A model generated the notes under the pieces. It saw only the letters and a list, made by a program, of their open reading frames with translations, had not been told where the DNA came from and did no database searches. The position numbers and the translations under genes are program-made. A stretch of 53,569 nucleotides of DNA from a virus. The stretch covers positions 1 to 53,569 of IMG/VR virus record IMGVR_UViG_3300045988_160359; one strand, 5' to 3'. This document shows positions 7,228-21,640 of the stretch, one piece after another (positions within the stretch are counted from its first letter, which is position 1; every line of letters begins with the position of its first letter).

Positions 7228-7350
7228 GTATTGACAAAAATGCCGGGCGCCACAATCGTGAGCGCCCGGTTCATTATACCACAGTCAGAGGGTGTTGTCA
7301 ATAGTCAAATTGAATAAAAAAATTGCTCTCAATTGAGAGCAATTTGATAA
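7228..7350 (-). promoter_or_regulatory. Promoter / hairpin / terminator module, minus-strand promoter only
   Basis: On the minus strand TTGACA-N17-TATAAT is followed by the conserved hairpin ccgggcgcc...ggcgcccgg. The aaattgctctcaattgagagcaattt hairpin sits at the gene boundary. Confidence 0.5.
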
Positions 7351-7673
7351 GTTCGACGAATGGTAATTTCAACAGACTTCGGCTTCACAGGACAGGCAAA
7401 TCTGTCATTTCTCACAAACACGCCGTATCCCATTTTCTGCCAATGCTCACGGTTTTTGTCCTCGTATCGCAAAGTGTTATACTTGGAGAGCGGTATCGAA
7501 AAATCGTAAACAAATTCAGAATTGTGCGGTAAACGGTGAATGGCGGTTTTGCGATAGTTTCTTGTGTGTTCCTGCTGTCTGCGTTTTAGGTCGTTAGTAG
7601 TGCCTATTTTCAGAATGTATACACCATTTTCATCATAATAGTGCCCTACATACAAAAATTCCTTGTTTTTCAC
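7329..7673 (-). CDS. GIY-YIG nuclease-domain protein
   Basis: Motifs YVGHYY...GVYILKIGTT...RRQQEH. The start is placed at an in-frame GTG preceded by GAGGA. The track ORF starts at a TTG at 7727. Confidence 0.55.
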   Translation of the reverse strand: MKNKEFLYVGHYYDENGVYILKIGTTNDLKRRQQEHTRNYRKTAIHRLPHNSEFVYDFSIPLSKYNTLRYEDKNREHWQKMGYGVFVRNDRFACPVKPKSVEITIRRTYQIALN

Positions 7674-7723
7674 ACTTTTTTCCTCATTTTTCAGGGAAAA
7701 TGGGGGATTTCTCCCCCATTTTC

Positions 7724-8122
7724 TCAACTTTTCGGCTTGCGCTTCTGCACAAGGGTCAGTTCATAGGAATTTTCACCGATTTTGAACGCAATCTGTCTCT
7801 CTTTGTTGGTAATTTCCACATTTTCACAGGCATTTTCGCTGTTTTCGGTCAAAAATCTTGCCAATTCAGCGATAATGGACGCTTTCGTGGGATTTGCCTT
7901 GCGTTCTCTCGTGGTGAATTTGTATGCGGTGGGGGTTTTGCGTGTGCCAGTTTTGGCGAATTTCTGTGCGACTTTGAGCTGTTCTTTCGACAGGTCAAAA
8001 TCCTGTGCCTTGCCCTTGTCGATTTCTCGGTCAGAGTTCCACACGGCTTCTGCTTCATCAGCCGTCCAGCCCATTTTCGCCATAGCGTTTTTCAGCCATT
8101 CAGTTTTGGAGATTTCAGCCAT
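7724..8122 (-). CDS. Cassette protein B (132 aa), paralog of 10339..10695
   Basis: Shares the motif PTAYKF-x2-RERKANPTK-x-IIAEL with 10339..10695. Confidence 0.55.
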   Translation of the reverse strand: MAEISKTEWLKNAMAKMGWTADEAEAVWNSDREIDKGKAQDFDLSKEQLKVAQKFAKTGTRKTPTAYKFTTRERKANPTKASIIAELARFLTENSENACENVEITNKERQIAFKIGENSYELTLVQKRKPKS

Positions 8123-8182
8123 AAAACACCGCCTTTTTAGATTTTAGAGGATAGGGGGGGAGAATGTCTCCCCCCTCATACC

Positions 8183-8635
8183 TTACTTGGCGGTGAAATA
8201 CGCCTTGCGCTTATCCTCGATACGGTCTGCCTGACCGTCCAGCACCATCTGACGCACCAGAGAGGAGACTTTCTGGTTGGATGCCTCGGCGATAGCGGGG
8301 ACAGACTTCATCAGAGCGGACACAGTGAACTTCTCGCCCTTGTGGGCGTCCAGGAACGCCTTGATGTCAGCCTTGATACCCTCGTTTGCCACCTGCGTGG
8401 CGGTCGGCTTCTTGTCCACGGTGTTCTTGCGGTCGAGCAGTTCCAGCTCATGCTTGGCGAACTCCGCCATCTCTGCGGGAGAAATGTCCACATAGACAGT
8501 CTCGAAGTCCTCGGAAGTGCCGATACGCTGGGAAATGGGGAACTTGAACTCGCCCACCTCGGCAAAGGTTTTGAGGGCGGTGAAGTAGTCGCGCTTGGTC
8601 ATACGGCGGTTAGCGGTGGAAGTGATAGCAGTCAT
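8183..8635 (-). CDS. Cassette protein A, paralog of 10747..11178
   Basis: Shares HELELLDRKNTVDKKPT-x-TQ and NQKVSSLVRQMVLDGQ...EDKRKA with its paralog. The start is placed at the internal Met of MTAITST. Confidence 0.5.
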   Translation of the reverse strand: MTAITSTANRRMTKRDYFTALKTFAEVGEFKFPISQRIGTSEDFETVYVDISPAEMAEFAKHELELLDRKNTVDKKPTATQVANEGIKADIKAFLDAHKGEKFTVSALMKSVPAIAEASNQKVSSLVRQMVLDGQADRIEDKRKAYFTAK

Positions 8636-8894
8636 AGTATCAACCCTTTCTGCGTTTTTAGGTGTCGCCCACCATATTGTTGTTTCCCTCTTGGAACATC
8701 TATATTCTAACACATATCCGAAGCCTTGTCAAGACTTTTTTTCGGATTTGTGGAATTTTTTTTAAGGTACACGCCCCGCCGGAGAACCTCTCGCCCTCTC
8801 CCTTGGAACAATTATATACTACCACACCCTTGGGCAGATTTCAATAGTCAATACTCACAAAAAATGGGATTTTCAACATCCAAAATTTGTGCAA

Positions 8895-9050
8895 AAAAAC
8901 ACTTGACAAAATTTGTGCTCCGTGGTATAATGGAAATTTCGGGTGCCATAGCCGTGAGCGCCCGACCCATTTTAACACATTTGAGCGCATTTGTCAATAG
9001 GTAAAATGCACAAAAATAAACCAGCGTAGTTGGCTACTACGCTGGTTCCC
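8895..9050. promoter_or_regulatory. Convergent-promoter / hairpin / terminator module
   Basis: The plus strand has TTGACA-N17-TATAAT at ~8903-8931. The minus strand has TTGACA-N17-TAAAAT at ~8997-8969. Between them lies the hairpin cgggtgccatagccgtgagcgcccg. The accagcgtagttggctactacgctggt hairpin follows. Confidence 0.55.
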
Positions 9051-9407
9051 CTGTTGATACTCGCCAGCCGTCCGGACAGCCAGCCCACTTCTACACAGCT
9101 TGACACTTAGAGCAGGCGCAATGCCCATGTAAAGGTCTTTCTCGGCACGCGGTGAATGTGGTTAGAACTTCGTACCCAGTCCCAATTTCTAACGAGGGGT
9201 TCAAGATGGCGGTTGAGAAGAAATTATTGAGTGGGACAAACACTCTATTAAACTCCATCTTGGCTGGGGTCTTAATCAATCTATAATACATATCTAATCA
9301 ATAAATCATAGATTGATTACTAAGGTGGTCGATACAATCGCCATTTCATTTTTCTCACCTCACGATGTTAGTATAGCATAGGCGGGGCTGTTTGTCAAGA
9401 GTTTTTT

Positions 9408-10091
9408 TCAAAATTCCAAATCATCACAGACGCCATAGCCGGAGAAATCGAGGATAACCGGAGAAATGCCAATGTAGCCGATGTTTGAGCCGTGGAGGTC
9501 GTTGATGTGATACTTTTTAACGAACTCACAGAGGGCGATAACCTTGCGTTTGCCGTAGATAGAAACGGCAACTTTCGCCCATAGCCCATCGAGGTCGCGC
9601 CCGTAGCCGTTAACATCAGCTTTGCGGAACTGACGCTCGATTTGAGAAATACGACAGTCGGGGACAGTCTTTGCGATACGCGAGAGACGAGTTTTTATAC
9701 CGTCCTCACTCCAATGGATTTTGTGTGCGCTGTTGGTGATAATCTGTTGTGCGGTAAACGCAACAGGGTCATCACCCTCACGCGGAGGAACAATGTAGCC
9801 AGCCAACTCGGTGGCGGGGAAAAAATCCGCGAGGTTTGCATCTACGGCTTTCTTATACACAGCCACTTCGCGCTCTGCATCCCGCGTCTCCGTAGACCAT
9901 TTGAGGACATACCCCAAATCAGGGAACACCAGACATTCCTTGCTTGCGCCGTTGCTGGACGCTACTTTGACATTAGGATATGCGTCGTGGATAACGCGGG
10001 CTAAGGTGTCCGCGTCTCTGACGCGCCTTGGCTTTTCAGATACCGCCTGCTGAATGGTCAGGATAAAATCCTGAACTCTCGGAAACTTCAT
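9408..10091 (-). CDS. Protein-kinase-like early protein (APH/CotH-like fold; 227 aa)
   Basis: VAVYKK (VAxK-like), YHINDLHGSNIGY (Brenner-type HxDLHxxN catalytic loop) and ILDFSGYG (DFG-like). The RBS is AAAGGAG. Confidence 0.45.
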   Translation of the reverse strand: MKFPRVQDFILTIQQAVSEKPRRVRDADTLARVIHDAYPNVKVASSNGASKECLVFPDLGYVLKWSTETRDAEREVAVYKKAVDANLADFFPATELAGYIVPPREGDDPVAFTAQQIITNSAHKIHWSEDGIKTRLSRIAKTVPDCRISQIERQFRKADVNGYGRDLDGLWAKVAVSIYGKRKVIALCEFVKKYHINDLHGSNIGYIGISPVILDFSGYGVCDDLEF

Positions 10092-10194
10092 CGTTCATCG
10101 CTCCTTTCAGTATCATTATTATAACACATTACAGGGGAATTGCAATAGTCAATACCTACAAAAAACGGGATTTCCAACATCCAAAATTTGTGCA

Positions 10195-10340
10195 AAAAAA
10201 CGCTTGACAAAATTGCCAGTGGGGGTGTATAATAGAAATTTCGAGCGCCACATACGTGGACGCGCGACCGAATTATACCACACGCGCCCGGATTTGTCAA
10301 TAAGCAAAATGCACAAAAATGAGGGAGATTTCTCTCCCTC
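10195..10340. promoter_or_regulatory. Convergent-promoter / hairpin / terminator module
   Basis: Plus strand TTGACA-N18-TATAAT and minus strand TTGACA-N17-TATAAT. The central hairpin is gcgccacatacgtggacgcgc. On the minus strand a gagggagagaaatctccctc hairpin plus T-run terminator follows. Confidence 0.55.
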
Positions 10341-10695
10341 ACTTGCGCGGGCACGACAGCACAACCTTGTATTTTGTTCCATCAAGCGTGAATAAAAATT
10401 CGCGCTCCGCGTTGCTCACGTTCAGGTCAGTCGCGCCGTATGTGGTCAGTGTCTCGGTCAGCAGAGTGATGATAGTCTGCTTTGTGGGATTAGCCTTTCT
10501 TTCTCTTGGTGCGAACTTGTATGCGGTCGGCTGGCGTCCTACTCCCCGCGCTTTCTTGCTTGCCTTTTCCTGTTCTTCGGTCAGCGGAAACGGATTGCCG
10601 CCCTTGTCGATGATAGCATCTTGAACAATAATGTCCTTTGCTTCGGCTTCGGTGCAATCCAGCTTTCGCATGAGGTCGGCAACTCGGTCAGTCAT
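10339..10695 (-). CDS. Cassette protein B' (118 aa)
   Basis: PTAYKFAPRERKANPTKQTIITLL, paralogous to 7724..8122. Confidence 0.55.
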   Translation of the reverse strand: MTDRVADLMRKLDCTEAEAKDIIVQDAIIDKGGNPFPLTEEQEKASKKARGVGRQPTAYKFAPRERKANPTKQTIITLLTETLTTYGATDLNVSNAEREFLFTLDGTKYKVVLSCPRK

Positions 10696-10746
10696 GCGGT
10701 ACTCCTTTCAGGGGTAGGGTGGGGATTGCTCCCCACCCTTTGAGGT

Positions 10747-11178
10747 TTACGCGCTCACCTTGCGGAAGAACGCCTTGCGCTTGTCCTCCACGCGCTCCAC
10801 CTGCTTATCCAGCACCATCTGCCGGACGAGGGAGGACAGCTTCTGATTGCTCATGTCCTTGCAGACGGGGAACTCTTTGAGCATCTCGCTGATGGAATAC
10901 AGCCGGTTGCTCTCCATAGCGGACAGGACAGTGGTCTTGATGACCTCATTCTCCTGCTGGGTCTTGGTGGGCTTCTTATCCACGGTGTTCTTGCGGTCGA
11001 GCAGGTCGATTTCGTGGGTGATGAACTCCACCAGCTTGGGGTCAGCCTTGACCTCGGACAGGTTCAGCAGGGCGGTGAAATTGTCGCGCTTGGTGGGCTT
11101 GCGGGTGGTGGTGTTAGTGTTAGCCATAGTATCAATTCCTTTCTCCATTTGGTTTTGAGGGCTTTGCCCTCCTGACAT
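10747..11178 (-). CDS. Cassette protein A'
   Basis: Paralogous to 8183..8635. The true start may be the internal Met of MANTNTTT at about 11127. Confidence 0.5.
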   Translation of the reverse strand: MSGGQSPQNQMEKGIDTMANTNTTTRKPTKRDNFTALLNLSEVKADPKLVEFITHEIDLLDRKNTVDKKPTKTQQENEVIKTTVLSAMESNRLYSISEMLKEFPVCKDMSNQKLSSLVRQMVLDKQVERVEDKRKAFFRKVSA

Positions 11179-11880
11179 TATCTATTATAACAGCTTGCGC
11201 TGGGATTGTCAAGAGTTTTTTCAAAATTCTTGATTTTTTTTGATAGTGTCAACAGGGGAACGCTCCACAAGGGTTCACAGACGACTTACCACCTCGCCTG
11301 ACGAATAAGGTGTTGCTGTTGGTTCAACGTTTCCATGCGCATGGACGAACTGACCAATCTACTCACTTTTCGTTCATCGTTTGGGTTTACTGCGCTGGTA
11401 TAGTCCTTACTTCCTTTACTCTCACACGGTTCGCGACCCGTGGATTTCTTGGGTGGGGCTATTCCCCTCTTGACATTATCAATTATAACACAGGTGCTGG
11501 GGATTGTCAAGAGGTTTTTTGAAATTTTTCCAAATTTCTGAAACCTGTCTACACAGGCGACACATTAGACGCATCTGCCGTGCCGTTCCCCTCTTGACAT
11601 TATCCATTATAACACAGATGCTGGGGATTGTCAAGAGGGGAAATGCGGGTCAGTTACCGAGTTGTCACACCCGCCAGCGTGGCTCCCCCGAGGAGCAACT
11701 TGCTGTCCCCTCTTAACATTATTCATTATAGCACCTTTGATGGAGTTTGTCAAGAGGGAATTTTGGTCTTTTTTTTCAGTACGGCGCGCTCTCACTTACA
11801 CTTGGGACATTACCTACCATTAGCCCAGCCCACGGGGTCTCACCCCCTCTTGACATTATGTAGTATAGCACAGGTGAGCA
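11165..11880 (-). repeat. Tandem array of five ~50-bp palindromic promoter repeats (CTCTTGACA ... TGTCAAGAG)
   Basis: Copies at ~11168, 11464, 11590, 11707 and 11845. On the minus strand each reads TTGACA-N17-TATAAT(TATAGC). They are separated by 70-250 nt of non-coding sequence. Confidence 0.6.
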
Positions 11881-11929
11881 TGAATTACAATAGGCAAACT
11901 ATACAAGTTTCGGGAAAAATAAATAAAAA

Positions 11930-12090
11930 AATTTGTGTAAAAAAACTCTTGACAAAATTGCTGGCGGGGTGTATAATGGTGAATTCCGGCCGAGACGCGC
12001 GAAATCGGCCGGCCATTATACCATGCCCAGGCGCGTTTGTCAATAGGGAAAATTATACAAAAAATGAGGGGAAAATCCCCTCATTTTTTA
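11930..12090. promoter_or_regulatory. Convergent-promoter / hairpin / terminator module
   Basis: TTGACA-N17-TATAAT on both strands. The central hairpin is ccggccgagacgcgcgaaatcggccgg. A bidirectional terminator follows: gaggggaaaatcccctc with A/T runs on both sides. Confidence 0.55.
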
Positions 12091-12621
12091 GTCCATCTGA
12101 CAAGCGAGAAATGCGTCCCGCTTTTCGTTCAGTTTGACGATTTCACCCGCGATTTTGTCAGCCCTCATAGCCAACAGACGCCCATAGCTTCTGCGCCACG
12201 CCAGCATACCATCGGGATTGACCGTGTAAATATACTTTTCCTTTTCCACGGTCTTGGTGTCCTTACGCTCCGTGCGGAAATTCTGTCCATTCATAGTCCG
12301 CAGAGCGTTCTGCGCCACTTCCGGCAACCGCATCCAGTCATACTCGGTCATCAGGGCGTTGCCATCCTTGTCAATCATCCAGATTTCCGCTTCCCACGGG
12401 TCGAGCGTGATTTCCTTGGTGGATTTCTCGGTGCGAACTGCCTTGATGATACCCTCGTCCCGCAGGAACGCCAGAGAATTGTAGGTGTATCGCCGATAGT
12501 CGTGCTTTGCTTTGGTGAAGTCCTCGGAAGTGAACTCCTTATTCCCGAACAGGTCTACCAGCCACTTGTAGGTCTTGACCGTGCGGTTGAAGTTGTGAAC
12601 GTTAGCGTAGCGAGCTTTCAT
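12088..12621 (-). CDS. Hypothetical early protein (177 aa)
   Basis: Intact ORF. Confidence 0.5.
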   Translation of the reverse strand: MKARYANVHNFNRTVKTYKWLVDLFGNKEFTSEDFTKAKHDYRRYTYNSLAFLRDEGIIKAVRTEKSTKEITLDPWEAEIWMIDKDGNALMTEYDWMRLPEVAQNALRTMNGQNFRTERKDTKTVEKEKYIYTVNPDGMLAWRRSYGRLLAMRADKIAGEIVKLNEKRDAFLACQMD

Positions 12622-12733
12622 AGTTTTTCTCCTTTTCTATTGGTGGGGCTTACCATCGTTTCCCCTACCTTGAATTTGTAATGTTATTATAGCATGGAAT
12701 GGGGGCGTTGTCAACCCCCATTCCAAACTTTTT

Positions 12734-12949
12734 TTACGGGGGATCGTGCTTGCGGTACTCAGTCAGGTCAGGGTCGCCAATCCATTCAGAAAAGTCAACC
12801 CAGGAGTCGAACACGTGAAGAATTTCGATTTCATCAGGTTCAAACACCCCGCCACAACAGGCGCAGATTACGAAACCATTTTCAAGCTGGATACCAGCCT
12901 GAACGCCATCAGAATGGTCGCCCTTAAAAAGCACTTGCTTAATAGGCAT
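12734..12949 (-). CDS. Hypothetical small protein (71 aa)
   Basis: Intact ORF with a CACCGG motif. Confidence 0.4.
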   Translation of the reverse strand: MPIKQVLFKGDHSDGVQAGIQLENGFVICACCGGVFEPDEIEILHVFDSWVDFSEWIGDPDLTEYRKHDPP

Positions 12950-13016
12950 TGTACTTACCTCCTTGTTTTAGTATAGTCATTATACCACATGAGAAAGGGG
13001 CTGTCAAGCCCCATTC

Positions 13017-13673
13017 TCAAAACTTGGGAAAACATTTTACCTCAAAGGGCGCGTCCCATGCGTGGACGTTCTTGGTGTATCGCTTGTGCATCTTCTGACA
13101 GGCGAGGAAAATTTCCATTTCCTGCATAGCGTCAGACAGGGCGGTGTGTTCTTCGGAAAAGTCGGGGTTATCGTGGAGATAACCATACACCGCTTCGACA
13201 GAGGTTGCACAGGTCTTGCCATTCTTGGAACGCTTGCCATGCTCTCGGCAGTATTCCGCATAGGACTTTTTGTGGGTGATAGTTTCCAGTGCCATCAGAT
13301 AAAGGTCGATGAACTCGAAATTATCCAGCAGGTCGCGGAAACAGGTCTTGCAGAAGTCAAAACCGGAATTGTACGCCATCACATAGCGAACGCCGTAATG
13401 GTCGCACAGGTTTTTGACTACCTCATAGGCTTCGCGCTCCGTGGCGATAGCGGAGATTTCGCCAGTTTTGAGCCGTTCGGCATATACGGGAAAATTCTTC
13501 TTGGCGTAGCCATCGAGGGCGATTTCGTCATAATGCTCCATCACCAGCAGGGAAGTGGTGGCGAGGATTTCGCCCTTGCGGTCGTGGATAATCGCGCCCA
13601 CATTATACATTCCCGTGGGGTGAGCCGCGCCGCCTACCGTTTCAGTGTCCAGCGTGCAGTAGATATTTTTCAT
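13017..13673 (-). CDS. DnaQ-like DEDDh 3'-5' exonuclease
   Basis: Exo I LDTETVG, Exo II YNSGFDF and Exo III HTALSDA. Confidence 0.6.
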   Translation of the reverse strand: MKNIYCTLDTETVGGAAHPTGMYNVGAIIHDRKGEILATTSLLVMEHYDEIALDGYAKKNFPVYAERLKTGEISAIATEREAYEVVKNLCDHYGVRYVMAYNSGFDFCKTCFRDLLDNFEFIDLYLMALETITHKKSYAEYCREHGKRSKNGKTCATSVEAVYGYLHDNPDFSEEHTALSDAMQEMEIFLACQKMHKRYTKNVHAWDAPFEVKCFPKF

Positions 13674-13784
13674 TATTCATTCTCCTTTTCTCTTGGTTGG
13701 GCTTACCATCGTTTCCCATACCTTAATTACATTACATATTATAGCAGACAGGGGTGAGGTTGTCAACCCCTGTCTGCTATTTTT

Positions 13785-14231
13785 TTACAGGTTTCGCAAA
13801 ATTTCCATCAGGAGGTCGGCGTTGTATGCCATATTGTGAGTGTTTGCCGTCCACTCGTTGAGGTTGCGCTGTTCGTCATCGAACAAAATCGCGTTGGGGC
13901 AGGTCGCACAGTTGGACTTGGGAACGCCATAGGGGACAATATGGATTTCGTCCCACTGAACGCTGGGGAGATGTTTTGCCAGCCAGTCGCGCTTGACTTC
14001 GGCTACTTCGGCATTGAACTTATCCGTTCCGCTCTTGGACAGCCAGCTGATGATGCCGATATTGTAGCCACGCGCCTGCAAGCGGTTCAGGTAGCGGGCG
14101 AGGGTGGAGAAATGGACAAGCGGGCGAGCGTCCGCATATACGCTTGTGTCAGCGGCTTCCAGCTTTGCCAGCCAGTTAGGGTCGCCATACAGGTCGGCGA
14201 TAGTCCCGTCCATGTCCAGATAGATAGTCAT
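13785..14231 (-). CDS. HAD-superfamily phosphatase (DxDGT)
   Basis: MTIYLDMDGTIAD at the N-terminus after GAAAGGAAG. The track ORF extends to 14354. Confidence 0.55.
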   Translation of the reverse strand: MTIYLDMDGTIADLYGDPNWLAKLEAADTSVYADARPLVHFSTLARYLNRLQARGYNIGIISWLSKSGTDKFNAEVAEVKRDWLAKHLPSVQWDEIHIVPYGVPKSNCATCPNAILFDDEQRNLNEWTANTHNMAYNADLLMEILRNL

Positions 14232-14384
14232 AGTATCAACTTCCTTTCTTGATTGTAATGCTATTATACAGGATAAAACGCAATTTGTCAACAGTTTTTT
14301 TCGGTTTTGCTCTTGGTCATTTCGCACAAACTTTCGGGATGCGCGCTTGGGCAAATTTGTTCAATTTACCTATTGACAAAATTG

Positions 14385-14720: not shown

Positions 14721-14722
14721 TT

Positions 14723-14920: not shown

Positions 14921-14933
14921 TGTTAATCCCTCC

Positions 14934-15083: not shown

Positions 15084-15149
15084 TTTGTTGTCCTCCCTTA
15101 TTTGATGATACCATTCTAACACAGAGGGGCTGATTTGTCAACCCCTATT

Positions 15150-15626
15150 TTACAAATTTTTGCTTTCTGCCACGAAATATTTTGCGCCATACTGCGCCAC
15201 AATGTCCTTGACCTTTTTGCTCTCAGCTTGCGTGGCACAATAGAAATTAAATAGCGTGTGTTTGTTGCTAATCTCAATGTATGAGTGTGGAATGTCTCGC
15301 AGGTCAAAATCCACGGCGGCTCGATACTTAGTAGGAACAGTCATTTCGATTTTCCACAACTTTTCTTTGCGCGCCAACTCCTCAACCCACTTAACCGCCA
15401 GCACACCAATGAAATTACAGGCGGCGGTGATGCCCATTTTTGCCAACGTAGAAACGCCGTCAATGTTAGTCAAAATAATAACATAGGAATAGAAGCCATA
15501 GGTTAGCGCATTGATACCGGCGGCAACCCATTTATTGCCTTTAACAGTCAGAATAGACTTGATGGTGGACAGCACCACATTCACAGCGGTACAGATAATG
15601 AATAGAATAATAGCGTTCATAATCAT
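15150..15626 (-). CDS. Membrane protein with two N-terminal TM segments and a cytoplasmic domain
   Basis: The start is placed at MIMNAIILFIICTAV after AAAGGAG. Confidence 0.45.
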   Translation of the reverse strand: MIMNAIILFIICTAVNVVLSTIKSILTVKGNKWVAAGINALTYGFYSYVIILTNIDGVSTLAKMGITAACNFIGVLAVKWVEELARKEKLWKIEMTVPTKYRAAVDFDLRDIPHSYIEISNKHTLFNFYCATQAESKKVKDIVAQYGAKYFVAESKNL

Positions 15627-15762
15627 CACTCCTTTTTCAGTATAATAATAATAACACATTTAATTGAAAATGTCAAGAAAAATTTTTGTCGTAGTTAAAT
15701 TCTCACAAGATTAGTTTTTTGTTCCGTGTAGTTAGTTATAGCTAAACTTGAAAAGAGGGGCG

Positions 15763-16134
15763 TTAATGCCCCTCTGTTAGTTTGTTATACATACTCCACA
15801 GCGTTTCACAGGAATGGTTAGTCTGTTCAGCCATCCATACAATTTGGTCATCAGTCGGCAGGTATTTATCATCACGCCACCCGAAAAATCTTTCACAGGA
15901 CTGGTATGCCTTATACTCGTCCTCTGTCAGTTTGCCGCGCAACCGCCAGTCCCAGCAAACAGAGTCCACCATAGACCATATACACGCGCCTACGATAGTC
16001 AGTACCATAATCGCAACCGTTGCATATAGCACCAGTGTGGATTTTATCATACCATACACCAGCAGACCGAAACCACACACAATGAGGAAATTGCGCCCAT
16101 ACCTTTTAAGGGTCAACTTCTGAAAATCAGACAT
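15763..16134 (-). CDS. Membrane protein (123 aa)
   Basis: Two hydrophobic segments. Confidence 0.5.
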   Translation of the reverse strand: MSDFQKLTLKRYGRNFLIVCGFGLLVYGMIKSTLVLYATVAIMVLTIVGACIWSMVDSVCWDWRLRGKLTEDEYKAYQSCERFFGWRDDKYLPTDDQIVWMAEQTNHSCETLWSMYNKLTEGH

Positions 16135-16345
16135 TTTCTCTACTCCTTAACATATTGTCAGTAAATTCGTTGGAGAACTCCTCGGCGAAATCCTCACCAT
16201 AACCACGATTGGCAATTACCTCCATAACTGTCTCAATGCCGGACATATAATAGGGATTGCCGTTGATGGCATCATAACGCCCTTGGAACATAGGGCATTC
16301 GCGCAGGTCGCTGAAAACCATCTGATACGCTTTCTTCAACTCCAT
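16127..16345 (-). CDS. Hypothetical small protein (72 aa)
   Basis: Intact ORF. Confidence 0.45.
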   Translation of the reverse strand: MELKKAYQMVFSDLRECPMFQGRYDAINGNPYYMSGIETVMEVIANRGYGEDFAEEFSNEFTDNMLRSRENV

Positions 16346-16424
16346 TGTTCTTACCTCCTTGTTTCAGTATAGCCATTATACCGTATTACAGGATAGAAGT
16401 CAATCGTCAAATTGCACAAAATTG

Positions 16425-16560
16425 CGGCGAAAAATTTGTGGAGTATACCTATTGACAAAATGCCGGGCGCCACAATCGTTGGCGCGCGGCCGAAAATGTC
16501 AAGTGAAAAATTATACAAAATTTGGGCTGGATTTTTGTTCATCCAGCCCAAATGATTTTT
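16425..16560. promoter_or_regulatory. Degenerate copy of the promoter / hairpin / terminator module
   Basis: It has TTGACA boxes and the gccgggcgccacaatcgttggcgcgcggc hairpin, but weak -10 elements. The gggctggatttttgttcatccagccc terminator is present. Confidence 0.4.
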
Positions 16561-16807
16561 AGTCCTTTTCAAAAATAAAATCCGGTTTGAAAATGTAGAG
16601 GAACGCCACAGCGTAATGGAAAATCGGAATGATTGAGCCGGTGATGACTGTCAGCCAGTTAGAAAACGGACTGCGCTTGCTTTCGCCCCGGTTCTTGAAT
16701 GCTTCCTGCGCCTGTTCCTTGTTTTTCTTCATAGTCGAAATGATGCTTGCGATGCCCAGCCAGTAGAGAACGATACCGATGATGTAAATAATGAGAATGA
16801 TTTTCAT
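16559..16807 (-). CDS. Small membrane protein (82 aa)
   Basis: Two TM segments. Confidence 0.5.
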   Translation of the reverse strand: MKIILIIYIIGIVLYWLGIASIISTMKKNKEQAQEAFKNRGESKRSPFSNWLTVITGSIIPIFHYAVAFLYIFKPDFIFEKD

Positions 16808-16891
16808 AAATGTATCTCCTTTTTATTTGATTTACTTTTCCGATTTTGGAACGAAGCCACGGTTACTGGCTTTTGCGCTGAGAGTAAATGA

Positions 16892-17173
16892 TTATTCAAA
16901 CAAAACTTTTTCCCGGATGGTATAGCTTGCGATAATAGCACCGGAAAGCAAAACATAGGTTTCAAAACTGTATTTTTTCTTTTTGGAGGTATACGCCCTA
17001 CGCTTGCCGTTGAAATGCTCCTGAATGGTAAAACCCATTTCTGCATCAACGAGGTACAGGAAATAACTCAGTTCTTCAAACAGAGATAAAACCATTTCTT
17101 CGGCATCAGCTCGATTACCAAACAGTGCTATTAGTCTGGATGAATTTTCAAATACGGCATACCCAGTTTTCAT
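16892..17173 (-). CDS. Hypothetical small protein
   Basis: The start is placed at MKTGYAV after AAAGGGAGG. Confidence 0.4.
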   Translation of the reverse strand: MKTGYAVFENSSRLIALFGNRADAEEMVLSLFEELSYFLYLVDAEMGFTIQEHFNGKRRAYTSKKKKYSFETYVLLSGAIIASYTIREKVLFE

Positions 17174-17190
17174 TTTACTTACCTCCCTTT

Positions 17191-17391
17191 TTAGTGCTTT
17201 GGAACGAAACCCCGGCAGAATTGACGACACCAGGTGCGCTCGTTCTTTCGCTTCATACATTTACTCTCGCCCATACTGTTCATTACCTTGCCGTGGTTAT
17301 AACCCCAGTATTCACAGTTGGAACATCTTACCTTGTCAGGCTCTACGCAATAACGGTCGGCCAGTTCAGTTCTGATTTCAAAAGTAGTCAT
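17191..17391 (-). CDS. Cys-rich small protein (66 aa)
   Basis: CVEPDKVRCSNCEYW...C...C. Confidence 0.45.
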   Translation of the reverse strand: MTTFEIRTELADRYCVEPDKVRCSNCEYWGYNHGKVMNSMGESKCMKRKNERTWCRQFCRGFVPKH

Positions 17392-17479
17392 TCGGGGTAT
17401 CCTCCTTTATTTGATGTATTTATTATACCACACTTCTTGGTTGTTGTCAATAAAAAATGTGGGATTTCTCCCACATTTT

Positions 17480-17710
17480 TTATTTATTTTCTAACCGCAT
17501 TTTATCAGATCCGATAAGCGCGGCCAGCAGGTTTGAGGTATCACGGACTTGGCTCATAGAATACTCTTCGCCAATGTTGGAAATAGCGTATTCTTGTTCG
17601 TAGTCATACATCAAATCGAACAGGTGAGAAATGACCTCACGGGCGTCTTGAAGTTTGTTCTTTTCCTCTTGGGTAAGTTGAACCTGAACGTTTGAGGTAA
17701 TAATGTTCAT
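17480..17710 (-). CDS. Small protein (76 aa), paralog of 17726..17953
   Basis: LTQEEKNKLQDAREVISHLFDLMYDYEQEY aligns with LTENERKTLRDAYDILNELYDVIADNDCEY. Confidence 0.45.
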   Translation of the reverse strand: MNIITSNVQVQLTQEEKNKLQDAREVISHLFDLMYDYEQEYAISNIGEEYSMSQVRDTSNLLAALIGSDKMRLENK

Positions 17711-17725
17711 TTGTTGTACCTCCTT

Positions 17726-17953
17726 TTATTTACCGATTTCCACTTTTTCAGTGGGGGCAAGCATTTGAAGCACATTGGCTGTAAGCGCGACGTCCACTCT
17801 GTCATAGCCATTCCCGCAAGTATCGCTCACATACTCGCAATCATTATCGGCGATGACATCATACAATTCATTGAGAATGTCATAGGCGTCGCGCAAGGTT
17901 TTCCGTTCATTCTCTGTCAACTTGGCATAGATGGGAGCTTTGATAATTTCCAT
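17726..17953 (-). CDS. Small protein, paralog of 17480..17710
   Basis: The start is placed at MEIIKAP after AAAGGAG. Confidence 0.45.
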   Translation of the reverse strand: MEIIKAPIYAKLTENERKTLRDAYDILNELYDVIADNDCEYVSDTCGNGYDRVDVALTANVLQMLAPTEKVEIGK

Positions 17954-18022
17954 TTTGATATTCTCCTTTCTCTTGGTATTATCTATTATAGCAGATAAGG
18001 ACTTGTTTGTCAAGCCCTTATC

Positions 18023-18352
18023 TTAATTTTTATTCATCAGGTAGTTAGTCTCGATAGTCCAACCGCAGTCTTGACAGGTGTAGTAAAATGTTTCGCTCAT
18101 ACGGTAGCGAGTAGAGGAAGAGAAGCGGTATTCGCCGCCGCACTTGACACATACGCCATTATTGAAAGTGTCGCAGTCATTGATGTGTTCCTGTCCCATC
18201 ATAGCACCAACACCGAAGAAGATAGCACAGCAGATAATGAATGACAGTACCTTGCTCACCCAACGGTCGCAACACCCAATAGCAACAGATAAACCGATAG
18301 GCAGACCAGCGACACCACCCATAAGCAGACCACCGATAATTACATCAGACAT
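18023..18352 (-). CDS. Membrane protein with a C-terminal zinc ribbon
   Basis: The start is placed at MSDVIIGG after AAGGGAGG. CVKCGG...CQDCG. Confidence 0.45.
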   Translation of the reverse strand: MSDVIIGGLLMGGVAGLPIGLSVAIGCCDRWVSKVLSFIICCAIFFGVGAMMGQEHINDCDTFNNGVCVKCGGEYRFSSSTRYRMSETFYYTCQDCGWTIETNYLMNKN

Positions 18353-18422
18353 TTTTTCGTCCTCCCTTGTTTTGTTATACTCATTATAGCAGAAATGGGG
18401 CTTGTTGTCAAGCCCCAATTTT

Positions 18423-18746
18423 CTACTTTACTACATAAAATTCGGGGTGGCGTTCTTCATTCTTGCGAATGCGCTTGACCAACTGTTGAGGTAAGCGGTT
18501 TTTGCCAGCACTCTTGTATATAGCGACAGCCCGTTCAAAGGTTGCGGGGTATGCGGTGATGATGAAATTCTCATATAAGTCCAGCACCAAAATGATGCCA
18601 GTCGAGAGCAAACGCAGGCGCGCAGTTTGGCGTTGGTCAATGACCTCAATCATCACGCGGTCAGAATATCCGAGATATTCCTGTAAGAGGGCGAGCCGGT
18701 TAGCCCGCTCCTCTGTCAGATGGTTCGACATAGTGTAGTTTTCCAT
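18423..18746 (-). CDS. Hypothetical protein (~107 aa)
   Basis: The start is placed at MENYTMSN after GGGGTGG. The track's 186-aa ORF fuses it with the upstream gene. Confidence 0.4.
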   Translation of the reverse strand: MENYTMSNHLTEERANRLALLQEYLGYSDRVMIEVIDQRQTARLRLLSTGIILVLDLYENFIITAYPATFERAVAIYKSAGKNRLPQQLVKRIRKNEERHPEFYVVK

Positions 18747-18751
18747 ATTAC

Positions 18752-18928
18752 CACCCCATATTGAACACGAAGCGCACCAGACCGATACAGGCAACGCCAT
18801 ATAGGATAGAGCCAACGAGGAAGTGCCAGTCGTGCGTCTGACGATAGACCATATACCCGCCGACACACTGAACGCCAGCGAAGCCAGCGAGGGCGAGGAT
18901 TGCGAGGATTGCGATAGTAGCCATTGTG
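18752..18928 (-). CDS. Small membrane protein (~58 aa)
   Basis: MATIAILAILALAGFAGV... after AAAGGAGG. Confidence 0.35.
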
Positions 18929-19044
18929 AATGACCTCCTTTAATTGATGGTATAAGTATAGCATACCTACTGGGCGTTGTCAACCGTCAAATTGCACAAA
19001 TTTCGGGATAAAAAATTGTTGAAAATACCGAACACAAAATGCTT

Positions 19045-19190
19045 GACAAATTGGCTGGGCTGTGGTATAATGGAATTTCCGGCCGCAACAGTCGTGGGCG
19101 GCTGGCCAAATTATACCATAGAAATGCTATTTTGTCAATAGGCAAAATGCACAAAAAAATGAGCCAAAATTTGGCTCATTTTATAATTCC
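19045..19190. promoter_or_regulatory. Convergent-promoter / hairpin / terminator module
   Basis: TTGACA-N17-TATAAT on both strands. Hairpin ccggccgcaacagtcgtgggcggctgg. Terminator gagccaaaatttggctc. Confidence 0.55.
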
Positions 19191-19284
19191 TATTCCGATA
19201 AGACAGAGGTACAGAAGAACACCACCGAAACCGAAAAATACAATCAGTCCCATAAACCACTGCCACAATCTTTCGTGTTTCATA

Positions 19285-19470
19285 TTATCTCAGCCCCCTA
19301 AAATCAACCACTTTGCCGTCTACCATCTCATGCCAGTAGAGCTTATCATTGTAGCGGATAGCCCGCACGCGGTAGTTGTGATTATCCCATGTGGTGTATT
19401 CTTTGTCGATTACATACTCGCCATAGCGGAGAACAGAATTGATAAATGTGTTGGTAAATGTCTGTTTCAT
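19285..19470 (-). CDS. Hypothetical small protein (61 aa)
   Basis: Intact ORF. Confidence 0.45.
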   Translation of the reverse strand: MKQTFTNTFINSVLRYGEYVIDKEYTTWDNHNYRVRAIRYNDKLYWHEMVDGKVVDFRGLR

Positions 19471-19480
19471 ATTCGCGCCC

Positions 19481-19702
19481 TCACATTCCGCGGACTGCGC
19501 CGCACTCGCTCATACCGTTTTCATCAAAGCGGGCGATAGGCTCGCCGTTCATCTCGCGGAGTTCAGCCCACGCTTCACCAAAGCCGCCATCAGCCAGCAT
19601 CAGCCGCACCAGCTCACACGCCGTTTCAAACTTGTTCCACGCGGCTTCATCACCGCTCACGCGCACGACTTCAACATTATTGACTACCACACTGTATTCC
19701 AT
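19481..19702 (-). CDS. Hypothetical small protein
   Basis: The start is placed at MEYSVVVNN after GAGGGAGG. Confidence 0.4.
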   Translation of the reverse strand: MEYSVVVNNVEVVRVSGDEAAWNKFETACELVRLMLADGGFGEAWAELREMNGEPIARFDENGMSECGAVRGM

Positions 19703-19783
19703 CTTGAATACCTCCCTCATTTGATAATACAATTATAGCACGCTTATTTATATTTGTCAATAGAAAAAATGAAAAAATCCGAA

Positions 19784-20062
19784 TTAGCTTCGGATTTTTT
19801 CAACGGTGATGATATTGGAATTGTCCCAGTTATAAGACACGGAGAACTGCTCATATAGACCATATATAAACCGCGTCCAGCCTTTGGTGCAGAACTCTCT
19901 CTGCCAATATCTTTCCAGAGGGCGCAGCTCCCACTGGATATACAACTGTTCTTCAAGGAAATCGCATATACTGGTGTCGGTGTCCCACTGGGCAGTAGCA
20001 GTTTCGCTATACTGCGCCTCGCTGTCGATGAACCTAATCTTGTACTCACGTGTCATACTCAT
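19784..20062 (-). CDS. Hypothetical small protein
   Basis: The start is placed at MSMTREYK after AGAGGAGG. Confidence 0.4.
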   Translation of the reverse strand: MSMTREYKIRFIDSEAQYSETATAQWDTDTSICDFLEEQLYIQWELRPLERYWQREFCTKGWTRFIYGLYEQFSVSYNWDNSNIITVEKIRS

Positions 20063-20174
20063 GACCTCCTCTGTTTTATGTATACAGTATAGCACAGGGG
20101 TGCGTGAATGTCAATAGTCAAAATGCACAAATTTCGGGATTTGGAATGTATAATTTTTGTTCATAATGCCTATT

Positions 20175-20290
20175 GACAAAATTGTTGGGACATGGTATAA
20201 TGGTAAATTTCGCGCGCCAGGGCCGTGGGCGCGCGACCGAGTATAGCACAAATGGGGCGCGTTGTCAACAGGCAAAATGACCAAAATTTT
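20175..20290. promoter_or_regulatory. Convergent-promoter / hairpin module
   Basis: Plus strand TTGACA-N17-TATAAT. Minus strand TTGACA-N17-TATACT. Hairpin tcgcgcgccagggccgtgggcgcgcga. Confidence 0.55.
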
Positions 20291-20346
20291 CAATCGAATT
20301 ATGGGCATAATGCCATATATAAAAAACAAGGGCTTTCGCCCTTGTC

Positions 20347-20538
20347 TTAGTAGCCCCTCTTTTCCAGTCTTTCCAGCCGGTCGGCGAGGGAACGCGCCAG
20401 CAGAACTTTTTTCCATTTCATAAGCTCGGCTTTGTTGCCCTCGGTGTTCGCCCAGATGCCCCAGGTGATGCCCTCGTTGATGATTTCCGCTTTCTTCATG
20501 CCCATCAGGTTTTCGAGATACTGTTCAAAGTTTGTCAT
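20347..20538 (-). CDS. Hypothetical small protein (63 aa)
   Basis: Intact ORF. Confidence 0.45.
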   Translation of the reverse strand: MTNFEQYLENLMGMKKAEIINEGITWGIWANTEGNKAELMKWKKVLLARSLADRLERLEKRGY

Positions 20539-20635
20539 AGCGTTTAGCTCCTCTCTTTTGATGGTTTAATTATAGCAAGTTAAACGCAGTTTGTCAATAG
20601 TTTTTTCAAAAAAAATAAAAAAAATAGTCGAGGGA

Positions 20636-20800
20636 TTAACCCTCGACTACTGCGACAACCTCGCCGTTCATACACGCGTGAACGTCGAACTCAACGCCTT
20701 TCCAGCTATCGCTGTAAAGGTACGTCCAGTCATCGCCCAGCACATAGGGCAGAGGCTTTACAGGGAGCACGCCGTCGGGAGTCTTTACAGTAGTCATCAT
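20636..20800 (-). CDS. Hypothetical small protein
   Basis: The start is placed at MMTTVKTP after GAAGGAGG. Confidence 0.35.
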   Translation of the reverse strand: MMTTVKTPDGVLPVKPLPYVLGDDWTYLYSDSWKGVEFDVHACMNGEVVAVVEG

Positions 20801-21106
20801 AGTCTTGCGACCTCCTTCATTTGATGGTTTAATTATAGCACCGTAGGTACATTTTGTCAAGCCCTTTTTCAAGAAATTTCAAAAATTTCTTCGTAGCCAT
20901 CATCCCATACCTGCCGGCATTTAGTGTTATCTTCATTAGCGTATTCGTCATAGCCAAAGCCCATGGACTCAACACGTCCTACAAAAATCCATTCCATTTA
21001 ATTATCTCCTTCCTTTTATCTGTTTGTATTATAATACAAAGGAGGGCTTTTGTCAATACTTTTTTCAAAATTTTTTCAAAAAAAAATAGGGCTTCCGCCC
21101 TATTTT

Positions 21107-21415
21107 TTAGCAGTAGGCAAGCGTCATAGTCGCCCATTTCAGCACGGAAATTTGATTACACGCTTTGCCGATTTCCATAGCTTCACGCTTTGTCGCCACG
21201 CGCTTGCTCCGGTCAACGAACCAAATTCCCCCACTATACCACACGCCACAATTTCCGCCGTAGTCTCTCACCGCGTCAATGGCTTCCTGTGCGGTCTTAC
21301 ATTCGATGCCCTCTGTGGCAACCTGCCAGCCGGATTTATAGTTTACCTTTTTGCCCATTTTGAGGGTCAGCCCGTCATTGTTGCCCAGCTTGCGGATAGA
21401 ACGAATGTTAATCAT
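21107..21415 (-). CDS. Hypothetical protein (102 aa)
   Basis: Intact ORF. Confidence 0.5.
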   Translation of the reverse strand: MINIRSIRKLGNNDGLTLKMGKKVNYKSGWQVATEGIECKTAQEAIDAVRDYGGNCGVWYSGGIWFVDRSKRVATKREAMEIGKACNQISVLKWATMTLAYC

Positions 21416-21534
21416 GTTGTGTATCTCCTTTGTTGTTTTGTTGTACTCATTATAACACGCCTATTTCGTTTTGTCTATTGGCAAACTATACAAATCGGGA
21501 TTGCGAATTTTGTGCGAAATTTTCGCATTTTTCT

Positions 21535-21640
21535 CTTGACAACTGGTGGGCTGCTGTGGTATAATATTTCGGGGCGCCACGTGCTTGATGAGCGCGACGA
21601 TGCTCGTTAAAATTTTAACAATCCAACAGCAAAAAATAAA
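21535..21640. promoter_or_regulatory. Promoter / hairpin module, followed by one TTTTAACAATC iteron
   Basis: Plus strand TTGACA-N18-TATAAT. The hairpin is cggggcgccacgtgc.... aaaattttaacaatcc lies at about 21613. Confidence 0.45.

Follow-up and report, generated by a model that had tools for sequence, protein, structure and literature searches.

The terminal redundancy of SPO1 is a host-takeover early gene array of a large Bacillota phage, and in arrays of this type small genes occur by the dozen, every one equipped with a strong sigma-A promoter and a strong SD. Short cis-antisense phage RNAs such as lambda OOP and P22 sar are single-copy switches tied to one gene, and face-to-face promoter pairs are known from P22 (Pant/Psar) and coliphage 186 (pR/pL). 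Repeated cassettes are described as the PeSLs of T4-type myoviruses, which combine a stem-loop/terminator, a near-consensus sigma-70-type early promoter and an SD, recur between small ORFan genes in a hyperplastic region, and form the ends of indels and replacements between close relatives (Arbiol 2010; Comeau 2014, PMC4122927). In E. coli, convergent polymerases become trapped at bidirectional terminator elements that form hairpins, and head-on and trailing collisions together enforce termination, more so at highly expressed genes (bioRxiv 10.1101/2022.10.23.513370).

The window analyzed here, 53,569 nt of viral DNA (IMG/VR record IMGVR_UViG_3300045988_160359), belongs to a large gut siphovirus of Bacillota in which TAG is read as an amino acid, and 229 relatives are present in IMG/VR. 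Its early region of about 40 co-directional genes is built from repeated units of terminator, consensus promoter and SD that surround small ORFan genes, and it shares with SPO1-type arrays their promoter and SD equipment and with PeSLs all of the traits named above. The phage is nevertheless unrelated to the T4 type and shows no sequence homology with it. PeSLs as described (PMC4122927) have neither an antisense promoter nor a promoter-proximal GC hairpin, whereas about ten junctions of the window phage carry an extra head-on promoter and hairpin, with a convergent promoter pair in six. The system is analogous to the T4 PeSLs, not homologous. For SPO1-type arrays, no description of regularly interspersed antisense promoter-hairpin units was found in the literature searched, and the paper on the related phage phAss-1 mentions neither promoters nor hairpins.

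Composition of the units

The first-pass annotation had described nine copies of a module in which perfect promoters on the two strands converge on a GC hairpin. All nine are present and homologous, as judged by alignment and by repeat families D2, D4, D6, D7, D10 and D13, and a covariance model recovered two further, decayed copies that had been missed (6367-6406 and 23736-23779). Units occur about once per 1.7 kb, immediately behind the intrinsic terminator of one early gene and ahead of the ordinary promoter of the next. In the following list, P-plus is the plus-strand promoter, P-A the convergent early promoter, and P-B the ordinary promoter, which stands back to back with P-plus about 60 bp away.

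Copy m8903
8903-8931, plus: P-plus, TTGACA-N17-TGnTATAAT, 12/12 match
8939-8965, unstranded: GC hairpin, -16.6 kcal/mol, z -4.45; model match 51.9 bits
8969-8997, minus: P-A, TTGACA-N17-TAAAAT
9018-9047, minus: terminator of the upstream early gene, 13-bp stem, T-run on the minus strand
8816-8844, minus: P-B, TTGAAA-N17-TAGTAT; read from the sequence, weaker match

Copy m10204
10204-10233, plus: P-plus, N18
10241-10267, unstranded: GC hairpin with two mismatches, covariance-model match
10272-10300, minus: P-A
10321-10340, minus: terminator hairpin
10118-10145, minus: P-B, TTGCAA-N16-TATAAT

Copy m11949
11949-11977, plus: P-plus
11986-12012, unstranded: GC hairpin, stem sequence wholly different (CCGGCCGA/TCGGCCGG), covariance-model match
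12015-12043, minus: P-A
12059-12089, unstranded: bidirectional terminator
11862-11890, minus: P-B, TTGTAA-N17-TATACT; read from the sequence

Copy m14373
14373-14401, plus: P-plus
14410-14434, unstranded: GC hairpin, covariance-model match
14439-14467, minus: P-A, TATACT
14485-14512, unstranded: bidirectional terminator
14263-14291, minus: P-B, driving the 5'-deoxynucleotidase gene 13785-14231

Copy m19043
19043-19071, plus: P-plus
19079-19105, unstranded: GC hairpin, covariance-model match
19110-19138, minus: P-A
19156-19182, unstranded: bidirectional terminator
18955-18983, minus: P-B

Copy m20173
20173-20201, plus: P-plus
20210-20236, unstranded: GC hairpin, perfect 9-bp stem, best model match (63.4 bits)
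20240-20268, minus: P-A, TATACT
20323-20348, minus: terminator
20086-20114, minus: P-B

Copy m21536, without P-A
21536-21565, plus: P-plus, N18
21572-21605, unstranded: variant, weaker hairpin, z -0.79
21613-21623: single TTTTAACAATC motif after the hairpin
21640-21659, minus: terminator
21449-21477, minus: P-B, TAGACA-N17-TATAAT

Deletion variant m7232
7231-7269, unstranded: hairpin (7243-7269) joined to a -35 remnant, plus-strand -10 absent; 26-bit match to model positions 9-47
7273-7301, minus: P-A
7320-7345, minus: terminator
7154-7182, minus: P-B, TTGCAT-N17-TATACT; read from the sequence

Deletion variant m16452
16452-16489, unstranded: same junction as m7232 (91% identical), without both -10 hexamers; repeat family D13
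16520-16553, unstranded: bidirectional terminator
16375-16403, minus: P-B

Decayed copy 6374
6367-6406, unstranded: GGAATTTC leader and imperfect hairpin, without plus promoter; 16 bits
6418-6446: P-A
6460-6497: terminator

Decayed copy 23746
23736-23779, unstranded: covariance-model match, without plus promoter
23746-23773: hairpin, -20 kcal/mol, z -3.9
23659-23687, minus: minus promoter downstream in the minus sense

The perfect plus-strand TTGACA-N17/18-TATAAT claimed for every site was found at seven of the nine (8903, 10204, 11949, 14373, 19043, 20173 and 21536); at 7231 and 16452 the TTGACA is fused directly to the hairpin, so that the plus-strand -10 is missing. The convergent minus promoter, likewise thought universal, accompanies six of the seven plus-promoter sites but not 21536, where the hairpin also differs, and the 16452 copy lacks the minus-strand -10 as well. 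At the six convergent sites P-plus, hairpin and P-A together make up an imperfect inverted repeat of ~130 bp, with opposing -10 hexamers 36-39 nt apart; the start sites would thus be ~23-25 nt apart, in agreement with the 15-25 nt proposed. Terminators are present, and T-runs flank both sides in about half of them (by eye).

Two further parts of that description did not hold. The motif GTCAATAG(G)CAAAATGCACAAAAA, taken for a module feature, is the -35 hexamer plus upstream element of ordinary promoters and is common to most of the 37 minus-strand promoters. Nor is the hairpin a structured sense-strand leader of each early gene, because P-B, which had been overlooked, drives the gene. Perfect 12/12 promoters number 29 between 6 and 24 kb, against a chance expectation of ~0.006 (2 strands x 18 kb x 3 spacings / 4^12), and a looser scan returned 83 promoters versus 28.3 +/- 5.6 in shuffles.

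Conservation of the hairpin and its promoter

The hairpin between the promoters is real, covaries strongly and carries compensatory changes. Across the stem, 89.8% of cells are paired, compared with 64.7% after shuffling and 26-44% when the alignment is slid, and double changes occur in eight of the nine stem pairs; the 42 distinct model matches are 91% paired versus 69% in shuffles. Stem sequences differ almost completely between copies, with no conserved sequence box: structure alone is kept. The stem has no strand bias, with 13 G.T-type versus 9 A.C-type among 1438 stem pairs, mean folding energies of -18.39 on the plus and -18.57 on the minus strand, and the plus strand the more stable in 94 hairpins versus 95. 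No U-tract adjoins the hairpin on either side, the minus-strand sequence after it (GAAATTTCC) being a poor one, and no Rfam match was obtained, CRISPR repeat families included.

P-plus has the form of a super-consensus sigma-A promoter, with perfect -35 and -10 hexamers separated by 17 bp and, in many cases, a TG extension. Its discriminator of 7-8 nt starts with GG and continues A/T-rich; in 136 of 154 units the stem begins 7-8 nt after the -10, at about the expected transcription start. Among relatives, the conserved unit is this counter-promoter, discriminator and hairpin. The convergent pair, proposed as the core, is not what is conserved: P-A is present in 42 of 105 units and absent from 63, while P-plus and the hairpin are kept. 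The orientation is strictly antisense to the early genes, with 69 of 69 model matches on the plus strand (80 loci oriented by the first late gene), and this layout recurs in the gene maps of a distant relative. Downstream of P-plus, an SD-bearing ORF on the same strand occurs in only 15 of 154 units, and P-plus is therefore, by its sequence context, not an mRNA promoter.

Where P-A is absent, the median distance to the next hairpin downstream is 14 nt, and an A-run, the T-run of a minus-direction terminator, precedes that hairpin in 59 of 80 units. The neighboring genes are unrelated ORFans: the 121 convergent neighbors fall into 73 families and the 74 divergent neighbors into 39.

Proposed head-on transcription and its alternatives

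The arrangement suggests that the unit is probably a transcription barrier (collision insulator) or an antisense-RNA device. We tentatively favor, as possible though short of probable, the reading that each site would be a short head-on (antisense) transcription unit acting in cis on early transcription. A polymerase loaded at P-plus would meet polymerases reading through the upstream terminator and, where the optional P-A exists, those started there. The hairpin, able to fold equally in transcripts of both directions and without a U-tract, would fix the site of mutual trapping, so that the unit would separate blocks of early genes as an insulator of the collision type. It would also yield, as a by-product or as a second output, a short antisense RNA with the hairpin as its 5' cap. 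Such an RNA would be complementary to the upstream mRNA at the 3' end and, in units that have P-A, to the first ~25 nt of the P-A transcript; an RNA of ~100 nt from P-plus is plausible. The E. coli collision-type bidirectional terminators (Ju et al. 2019; Wang et al. 2022, bioRxiv 10.1101/2022.10.23.513370) likewise place a hairpin lacking a canonical U-tract, foldable in RNA of either direction, between opposing flows. In the phage, however, a dedicated non-coding promoter at a distance of 7-8 nt from the hairpin, rather than a neighboring gene, would supply the opposing flow, and an ordinary intrinsic terminator adjoins; moreover, collision termination was demonstrated in E. coli, not in Bacillota, while the phage unit is known from sequence. 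It is not obvious why genes that all run in one direction would need insulation, and the insulator model does not explain a near-consensus P-A placed between terminator and hairpin, where P-plus would block it.

It is less likely, but deserves weight, that the unit chiefly encodes a stable cis-antisense small RNA comparable to lambda OOP or P22 sar, with a 5' hairpin protecting against 5' exonuclease and an end at the neighbor's terminator; base-pairing to the upstream mRNA at its 3' end, and to P-A transcripts at their 5' ends, would lead to RNase III-type decay and time early-gene shut-off. With OOP and sar the unit would share a constitutive promoter that faces an early gene and a short structured RNA overlapping the end or leader of that gene. 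In Bacillus, 5'-terminal stem-loops stabilize RNA. The strong promoter, the 5'-proximal hairpin at the expected start, a terminator hairpin 14-52 nt downstream, T-runs on both sides of about half of the window's terminators, and the complementarity to the upstream 3' end that follows from the arrangement all fit. However, only 13 of 80 units have a run of at least 5 T in the plus direction behind the terminator, a count that understates terminators whose stems already absorb A/T runs; the plus strand has neither G.U enrichment nor an energy advantage; and unlike OOP and sar the unit is generic, multi-copy and beside unrelated genes, so that no specific target class is apparent.

We consider it unlikely that the unit is a DNA-level element, in which the palindrome would signal replication or priming, form a cruciform or bind a protein, or would simply be a selfish repeat that recombination has spread, with the promoters secondary. 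The hairpin's symmetry is equally compatible with such a palindrome. In favor of this reading, stems are perfect Watson-Crick without wobble bias, six copies form the long inverted repeat, copies decay and occupy recombination joints, and Enterococcus phage H1 has a similar antisense promoter and GC hairpin in an iteron-like cluster. Against this, the divergence of the stems makes sequence-specific protein binding unlikely, the long palindrome is missing from most relatives, and no evidence of transposition was seen; the invariant orientation, together with conserved promoter hexamers, spacing and discriminator, indicates selection on transcription.

An antitermination role is improbable. Here the hairpin would be a loading signal of the nut, put or Q-pause type, and with an early factor P-plus transcripts would read through plus-strand terminators, silence early genes and feed the plus-strand late cluster. 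Every unit is directed toward the late genes, and the succession of constitutive promoter, short structured RNA and terminator recalls lambda pR'-tR'. Yet there is no Rfam match, structure is conserved without a sequence box, and to reach the late cluster, which has its own perfect promoter (25848-25876), the transcripts would need to run through 4-18 kb of heavy opposing transcription and past a strong plus-direction terminator (22151-22182).

Two readings are more improbable still. The hairpin might serve the minus strand, stabilizing P-A mRNAs at the 5' end or acting on read-through early transcripts as a reserve terminator or processing site, with P-plus an incidental inverted early-promoter copy; P-A transcripts would start 2-4 nt into the stem and so carry a blunt hairpin at the 5' end, and the 7231 copy retains P-A and hairpin after losing the plus-strand -10, but most units in relatives keep a perfect P-plus without P-A, P-B rather than P-A adjoins the gene's SD, and the following U-tract is poor. 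Just as doubtful are RNAs acting in trans, as decoys or sponges for a host nuclease, RNA polymerase or defense sensor, or as RNA anti-CRISPRs: copies are many, promoters strong and the structure stable, but stems and loops vary so widely within one genome that they poorly fit mimicry of one host RNA, Rfam and its CRISPR repeat families gave no match, and the strict antisense position beside terminators is left unexplained.

Recombination at the units

A suggested check was whether module boundaries coincide with gene-content breakpoints between relatives; among near-identical relatives the breakpoints do lie in the repeats, and as often at ordinary promoter/terminator repeats. The modules had also been called mobile; nothing beyond homologous recombination was seen. 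In the close relative L001, a chimeric module has m19043 as its left half and m20173 as its right half, with the loss of three genes and a crossover in the leader and 5' arm of the hairpin, which supports shuffling of the kind known from PeSLs (PMC4122927). The decayed copies (7231, 16452, 6374 and 23746) indicate that individual units are dispensable. Being repeated, the units serve as homologous-recombination joints at which gene cassettes are added or removed.

Counter-promoter and hairpin units in the early gene array

The region at 5.8-23.7 kb contains approximately 40 small genes, which all lie on the minus strand, use the standard code and have strong Shine–Dalgarno (SD) sequences. Most are ORFans, accompanied by an HD-domain protein and a 5'-deoxynucleotidase; 8 of the 10 early proteins examined had no credible Pfam match. 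Between 6.2 and 23.7 kb the minus strand carries 37 near-perfect TTGACA-N17-TGnTATAAT promoters, and the region is a typical early, host-takeover-like array. Perfect 12/12 promoters number 29 in 18 kb, compared with ~0.006 expected by arithmetic, and a looser scan returned 83 compared with 28 +/- 6 in shuffled sequence; chance cannot account for the repeated sites.

The first-pass annotation had described nine copies of a module in which two perfect promoters converge on a GC hairpin beside a terminator. Alignment and repeat families demonstrated that the nine sites are homologous. The perfect plus-strand promoter (TTGACA-N17/18-TATAAT, antisense to the early genes and termed P-plus) is present at seven of them, and the minus-strand promoter facing it across the hairpin (P-A) at six of those seven. 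A covariance model built from the unit and applied to the window gave 50-63 bits for the six complete copies and 26 bits for two deletion forms, and recovered two more decayed copies.

Copies of the unit in the window
6367-6406: decayed copy, from the covariance model
7231-7269: deletion copy, without a perfect P-plus
8903 (+): perfect P-plus, with P-A
10204 (+): perfect P-plus, with P-A
11949 (+): perfect P-plus, with P-A
14373 (+): perfect P-plus, with P-A
16452-16489: deletion copy, without a perfect P-plus; minus-strand -10 also lost
19043 (+): perfect P-plus, with P-A
20173 (+): perfect P-plus, with P-A
21536 (+): perfect P-plus, with a weaker, different hairpin and no P-A
23736-23779: decayed copy, from the covariance model

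At the six sites with both promoters, the two -10 hexamers lie 36-39 nt apart and the GC hairpin fills the gap. In both deletion copies the same junction fuses the -35 to the hairpin. These two dead modules are also 91% identical (family D13), and the inactivated form itself was therefore copied or converted to a second site.

The order proposed in the annotation (terminator, promoter, hairpin leader, gene) missed a second, ordinary minus-strand promoter, P-B, which lies between every module and its next gene. Along the early genes the order is the upstream gene, its intrinsic terminator, the optional P-A, the hairpin, P-plus on the opposite strand, a gap of ~55 bp, P-B, and then the SD and next gene. 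The units recur about every 1.7 kb through the array. Within the ~55-bp gap, between P-plus and P-B and ~35-45 bp upstream of the P-plus -35, stands a conserved ATTTCGGGA(T) motif (7164, 19000, 20131 and 21492; variants at ~8866, 10167, 11911 and 14340), which in distant relatives reads AATCGGGAT or TTTTGGGAT. The motif may mark a regulator site; over the whole window, the short ATTTCGGGA pattern alone was not above chance. A micro-ORF starting at a conserved ATGCAC was rejected on reading, having no usable SD.

The array also holds ordinary repeats. One junction resembles the promoter-early stem-loop (PeSL) cassettes of T4-type phages, with a terminator at 20623-20651, a promoter at 20569-20597, an SD and a gene start at 20538. 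Most early promoters (6178-23687, minus strand) have in common an extended -10, TGTGnTATAAT, and a block, AAATTTGTGCA, whose end lies 11 nt upstream of the -35; the block is also found on P-plus promoters. The ~830 bp at 22700-23530 have no convincing genes and contain seven copies of TTTTAACAATC (one reversed, two with one mismatch) within longer repeats (family D19), and an eighth copy follows the hairpin of the module at 21536. Replication may start in this stretch, or a regulator may bind to it. At 11164-11894, five tandem repeat units ~120-300 bp apart (families D5 and D12) each consist of a consensus promoter followed by GATAATGTCAAGAGGGG, which is SD-like, and micro-ORFs only.

Identity and layout of the phage

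In the standard code, the plus strand from 25.9 kb to the end holds short ORFs only. With TAG read as sense, 25887-53569 (+) becomes a continuous series of long late/structural genes, one of which has 2766 codons, 63 in-frame TAGs and a PhageMin_Tail (tape-measure) domain in its product. The closest terminases are those of Enterococcus and Geobacillus siphoviruses, and identity was 61% to a human-gut phage, ~52% to ~140-kb Enterococcus siphoviruses and 44% to the TAG-recoded phage phAss-1. The long genes with TAG as sense, the tape-measure domain and the terminase identities therefore place the window in a large siphovirus of Bacillota with TAG recoded. A crAss-type virion RNA polymerase was rejected as the identity of the 2766-aa ORF on the tail domain and the terminase affinities. 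In IMG/VR, 229 relatives of the first late gene were found, their contigs reaching ~200 kb in length. Megablast of 6-24 kb against GenBank phages returned no match, and a tRNA scan of the window found no tRNA gene, suppressor or other.

Codon composition is split to an extreme degree between 5771-23633 and 24531-50991: early minus-strand genes have GC3 values of ~0.4-0.9 at 39-57% GC, against a GC3 of 0.16-0.31 in the late genes, and the two minus-strand genes closest to the late cluster (24531-24824 and 25335-25733) are AT-rich already. Early stop codons are TAA in 30 cases, TGA in nine and TAG in only two. Early genes may be fitted to a GC-richer host and late genes reliant on phage tRNAs. 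The early/late boundary is marked by a divergent promoter pair, 25764-25792 (-) and 25848-25876 (+), and this region (25764-25876) has only the hexamers in common with the modules. The start codon of the first late gene (ATG, 25905) follows a perfect sigma-A promoter by just 28 nt; TAG recoding, and not the class of promoter, may therefore be what sets late timing.

Conservation of the unit among relatives

At least 154 distinct units were collected. The unit conserved in their early regions consists of P-plus, a 7-8-nt discriminator (GG, then A/T-rich) and a 7-16-bp GC hairpin. Only 42 of 105 units have a P-A; in those without one, the terminator hairpin of the convergent gene follows the GC hairpin across an A-run, at a median distance of 14 nt. 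With the late gene used to orient 80 loci, every one of the 69 model matches lies on the plus strand, antisense to early genes, at a distance of 4.3 kb or more upstream of the late cluster. In the full map of a distant relative, every gene is on one strand and the hairpin promoters are on the other. A same-strand ORF with an SD lies downstream of P-plus in only 15 of the 154 units, probably spuriously, so P-plus is not an mRNA promoter. Our search for a gene family consistently beside the unit found none; the flanking genes belong to 73 and 39 unrelated families, and the unit is thus generic.

Covariance supported the conserved hairpin of the annotation. An alignment of 35 units, drawn from the window and from relatives, gave nine stacked pairs that were 89.8% paired, compared with 64.7% after shuffling and 26-44% with partner columns slid, and 42 distinct model matches gave 91% compared with 69%; because alignment members were picked for having a hairpin, the paired percentage is inflated. 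Eight of the nine stem pairs have changes on both sides, and stems as different as CGAGCGCC, CCGGCCGC, CGCGCGCC and CGGGTCGCG occupy one and the same position. The in-register compensatory changes in the predicted stem are unambiguous despite this selection, and conservation is of structure only, not of sequence. Folding energies of the copies in the window are -14 to -24 kcal/mol. The two promoters are placed asymmetrically about the hairpin. A gap of 7-8 nt separates the P-plus -10 from the stem in 136 of 154 units; the predicted plus transcript therefore starts at the base of a complete hairpin. The predicted P-A transcript starts 2-4 nt inside the stem.

In the early array of Enterococcus phage H1, a cultured relative (L160; 14800-14905 and 17770-18580), each gene has its own promoter, and the early cluster also has two antisense promoters after terminators. 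One of these is followed by a GC hairpin inside an 800-bp non-coding stretch in which ATAAAATAAC-like repeats abound. Because the H1 stem begins directly after the -10, this element is only a possible homologue of the unit; H1 is a possible experimental handle. In a species-representative genome collection, the only unit matches were on short MAG contigs of mixed taxonomy (L274-L287; Clostridia, Treponema, Nanosyncoccus and Elusimicrobiaceae), most likely misbinned phage fragments, and the scan therefore yielded neither a host nor a bacterial counterpart.

Recombination at the units and their predicted role

Compared with six related loci (L001-L006), the late region of the window is 95-98% identical; in the early region, which is mosaic, identity is 84-93%. 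L001, L004, L005 and L006 lack window 19157-20061 (three genes), and in each of them a 226-bp stretch aligns to both m19043 and m20173, the modules at those positions. Three-way alignment demonstrated that L001 equals m19043 (one base off) through P-B, P-plus and the leader, and changes to m20173 within the 5' arm of the hairpin.

Breakpoints between close relatives
16558/17198: in ordinary promoter/terminator repeats
19157/20061: crossover inside m19043/m20173, traced base by base
20885/21049: in ordinary promoter/terminator repeats
21945/22081: in ordinary promoter/terminator repeats

Breakpoints in repeats, together with the chimeric module of L001, support PeSL-like shuffling, which is not specific to the modules and involves a whole family of repeated regulatory sequences. 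The shuffling works by homologous recombination. As in PeSLs (PMC4122927), an early sigma-70-like promoter has a stem-loop directly upstream and an SD and start codon downstream, many copies are gathered in a plastic ORFan region, and the motifs contain the breakpoints of indels and replacements between close relatives. The phage, however, is siphovirus-like, with a tape-measure protein, and not a T4-like myovirus; the modules are an analogue of T4-type PeSLs in an unrelated phage, not a member of that class.

By sequence, P-plus is a conserved, strictly antisense and very strong promoter. The unit holds a constant position, with a terminator on one side and the following promoter on the other, and doubles as a recombination joint. 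Predicted promoters and gene orientation would set the units between two converging flows: P-plus would bind the host sigma-A polymerase, and its polymerases would oppose read-through of the upstream terminator or starts at P-A. The nearest precedent for such a mechanism is in E. coli, where collision-type bidirectional terminators use a hairpin without a U-tract to trap polymerases from both sides, and head-on and trailing collisions give precise termination, especially at highly expressed genes (bioRxiv 10.1101/2022.10.23.513370). The unit hairpin likewise folds in RNA of both directions and has no canonical U-tract. This precedent leads us to favour, tentatively and with a little less than even confidence, a cis-acting head-on unit that would insulate early gene blocks and release a short hairpin-capped antisense RNA. 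Its main weakness is that P-A is left unexplained. A further-reaching form is possible and rather doubtful: that the units are portable elements purpose-built to mark transcription boundaries, in which a dedicated non-coding counter-promoter feeds programmed head-on collisions at a symmetric hairpin, giving each cassette an insulator and allowing it to be shuffled without disturbing its neighbours. If true, this would be the first collision terminator in nature to be driven by its own dedicated promoter; it would also be the first from any phage and from Bacillota.

An antisense RNA of the OOP/sar type, acting mainly post-transcriptionally, is an unlikely alternative. P-plus is an excellent promoter by sequence; a plus-direction T-run of at least five follows the terminator in only 13 of 80 units, a count that misses terminators whose stems absorb A/T runs. 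We consider it less probable still that the element acts as a DNA-level palindrome (an origin, a cruciform or a selfish repeat), a reading to which its symmetry is pertinent. Among 1438 stem pairs, 13 G.T-type and nine A.C-type mismatches gave no wobble bias; mean folding energies were -18.39 kcal/mol for the plus and -18.57 for the minus strand, with the plus strand more stable in 94 cases and the minus strand in 95; GNRA and UNCG loops were not in excess on either strand; and neither side of the hairpin has a U-tract, the flanks being GGAAATT and GCC(A/G). With no strand preference, the stem therefore looks built for folding in RNA from either direction, or as DNA.

A nut/put/Q-like antitermination start, sending plus-strand transcription toward the late genes, has little probability: the conserved feature is structure without sequence boxes, and no Rfam family, nut, put and EAR RNAs included, was matched at gathering thresholds anywhere in the window. 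Slightly less credit goes to a minus-strand 5' stabiliser, for which the plus promoter would be incidental, and the same low standing is given to a trans-acting decoy RNA. A MITE or Correia-like mobile repeat does not fit, since the promoter arms are inverted only where P-A is present, orientation is fixed (69/69) and the place relative to the terminator and P-B is fixed. Nor does an RNA anti-CRISPR or solitary CRISPR repeat, since stems differ at eight of nine positions between copies and Rfam gave no CRISPR-DR match.

Literature searches found no earlier description of such units, and a paper on the phAss group mentions neither promoters nor hairpins. Each part is already known by kind: consensus promoters, hairpins, antisense transcription and PeSL-like repeats. 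What is new is the combination of a dedicated counter-promoter abutting a symmetric hairpin, recurring through an early array and conserved throughout a large family of phages. The compact parts, a consensus promoter and a 27-nt hairpin, are possible insulators for Gram-positive synthetic biology. If the head-on units work as proposed, phages would punctuate their host-takeover arrays in modular fashion, by programmed polymerase collisions or by matched antisense RNAs, and the same repeats would also drive cassette exchange. The units provide a concrete regulatory feature for a very large, almost unstudied family of TAG-recoded gut phages.
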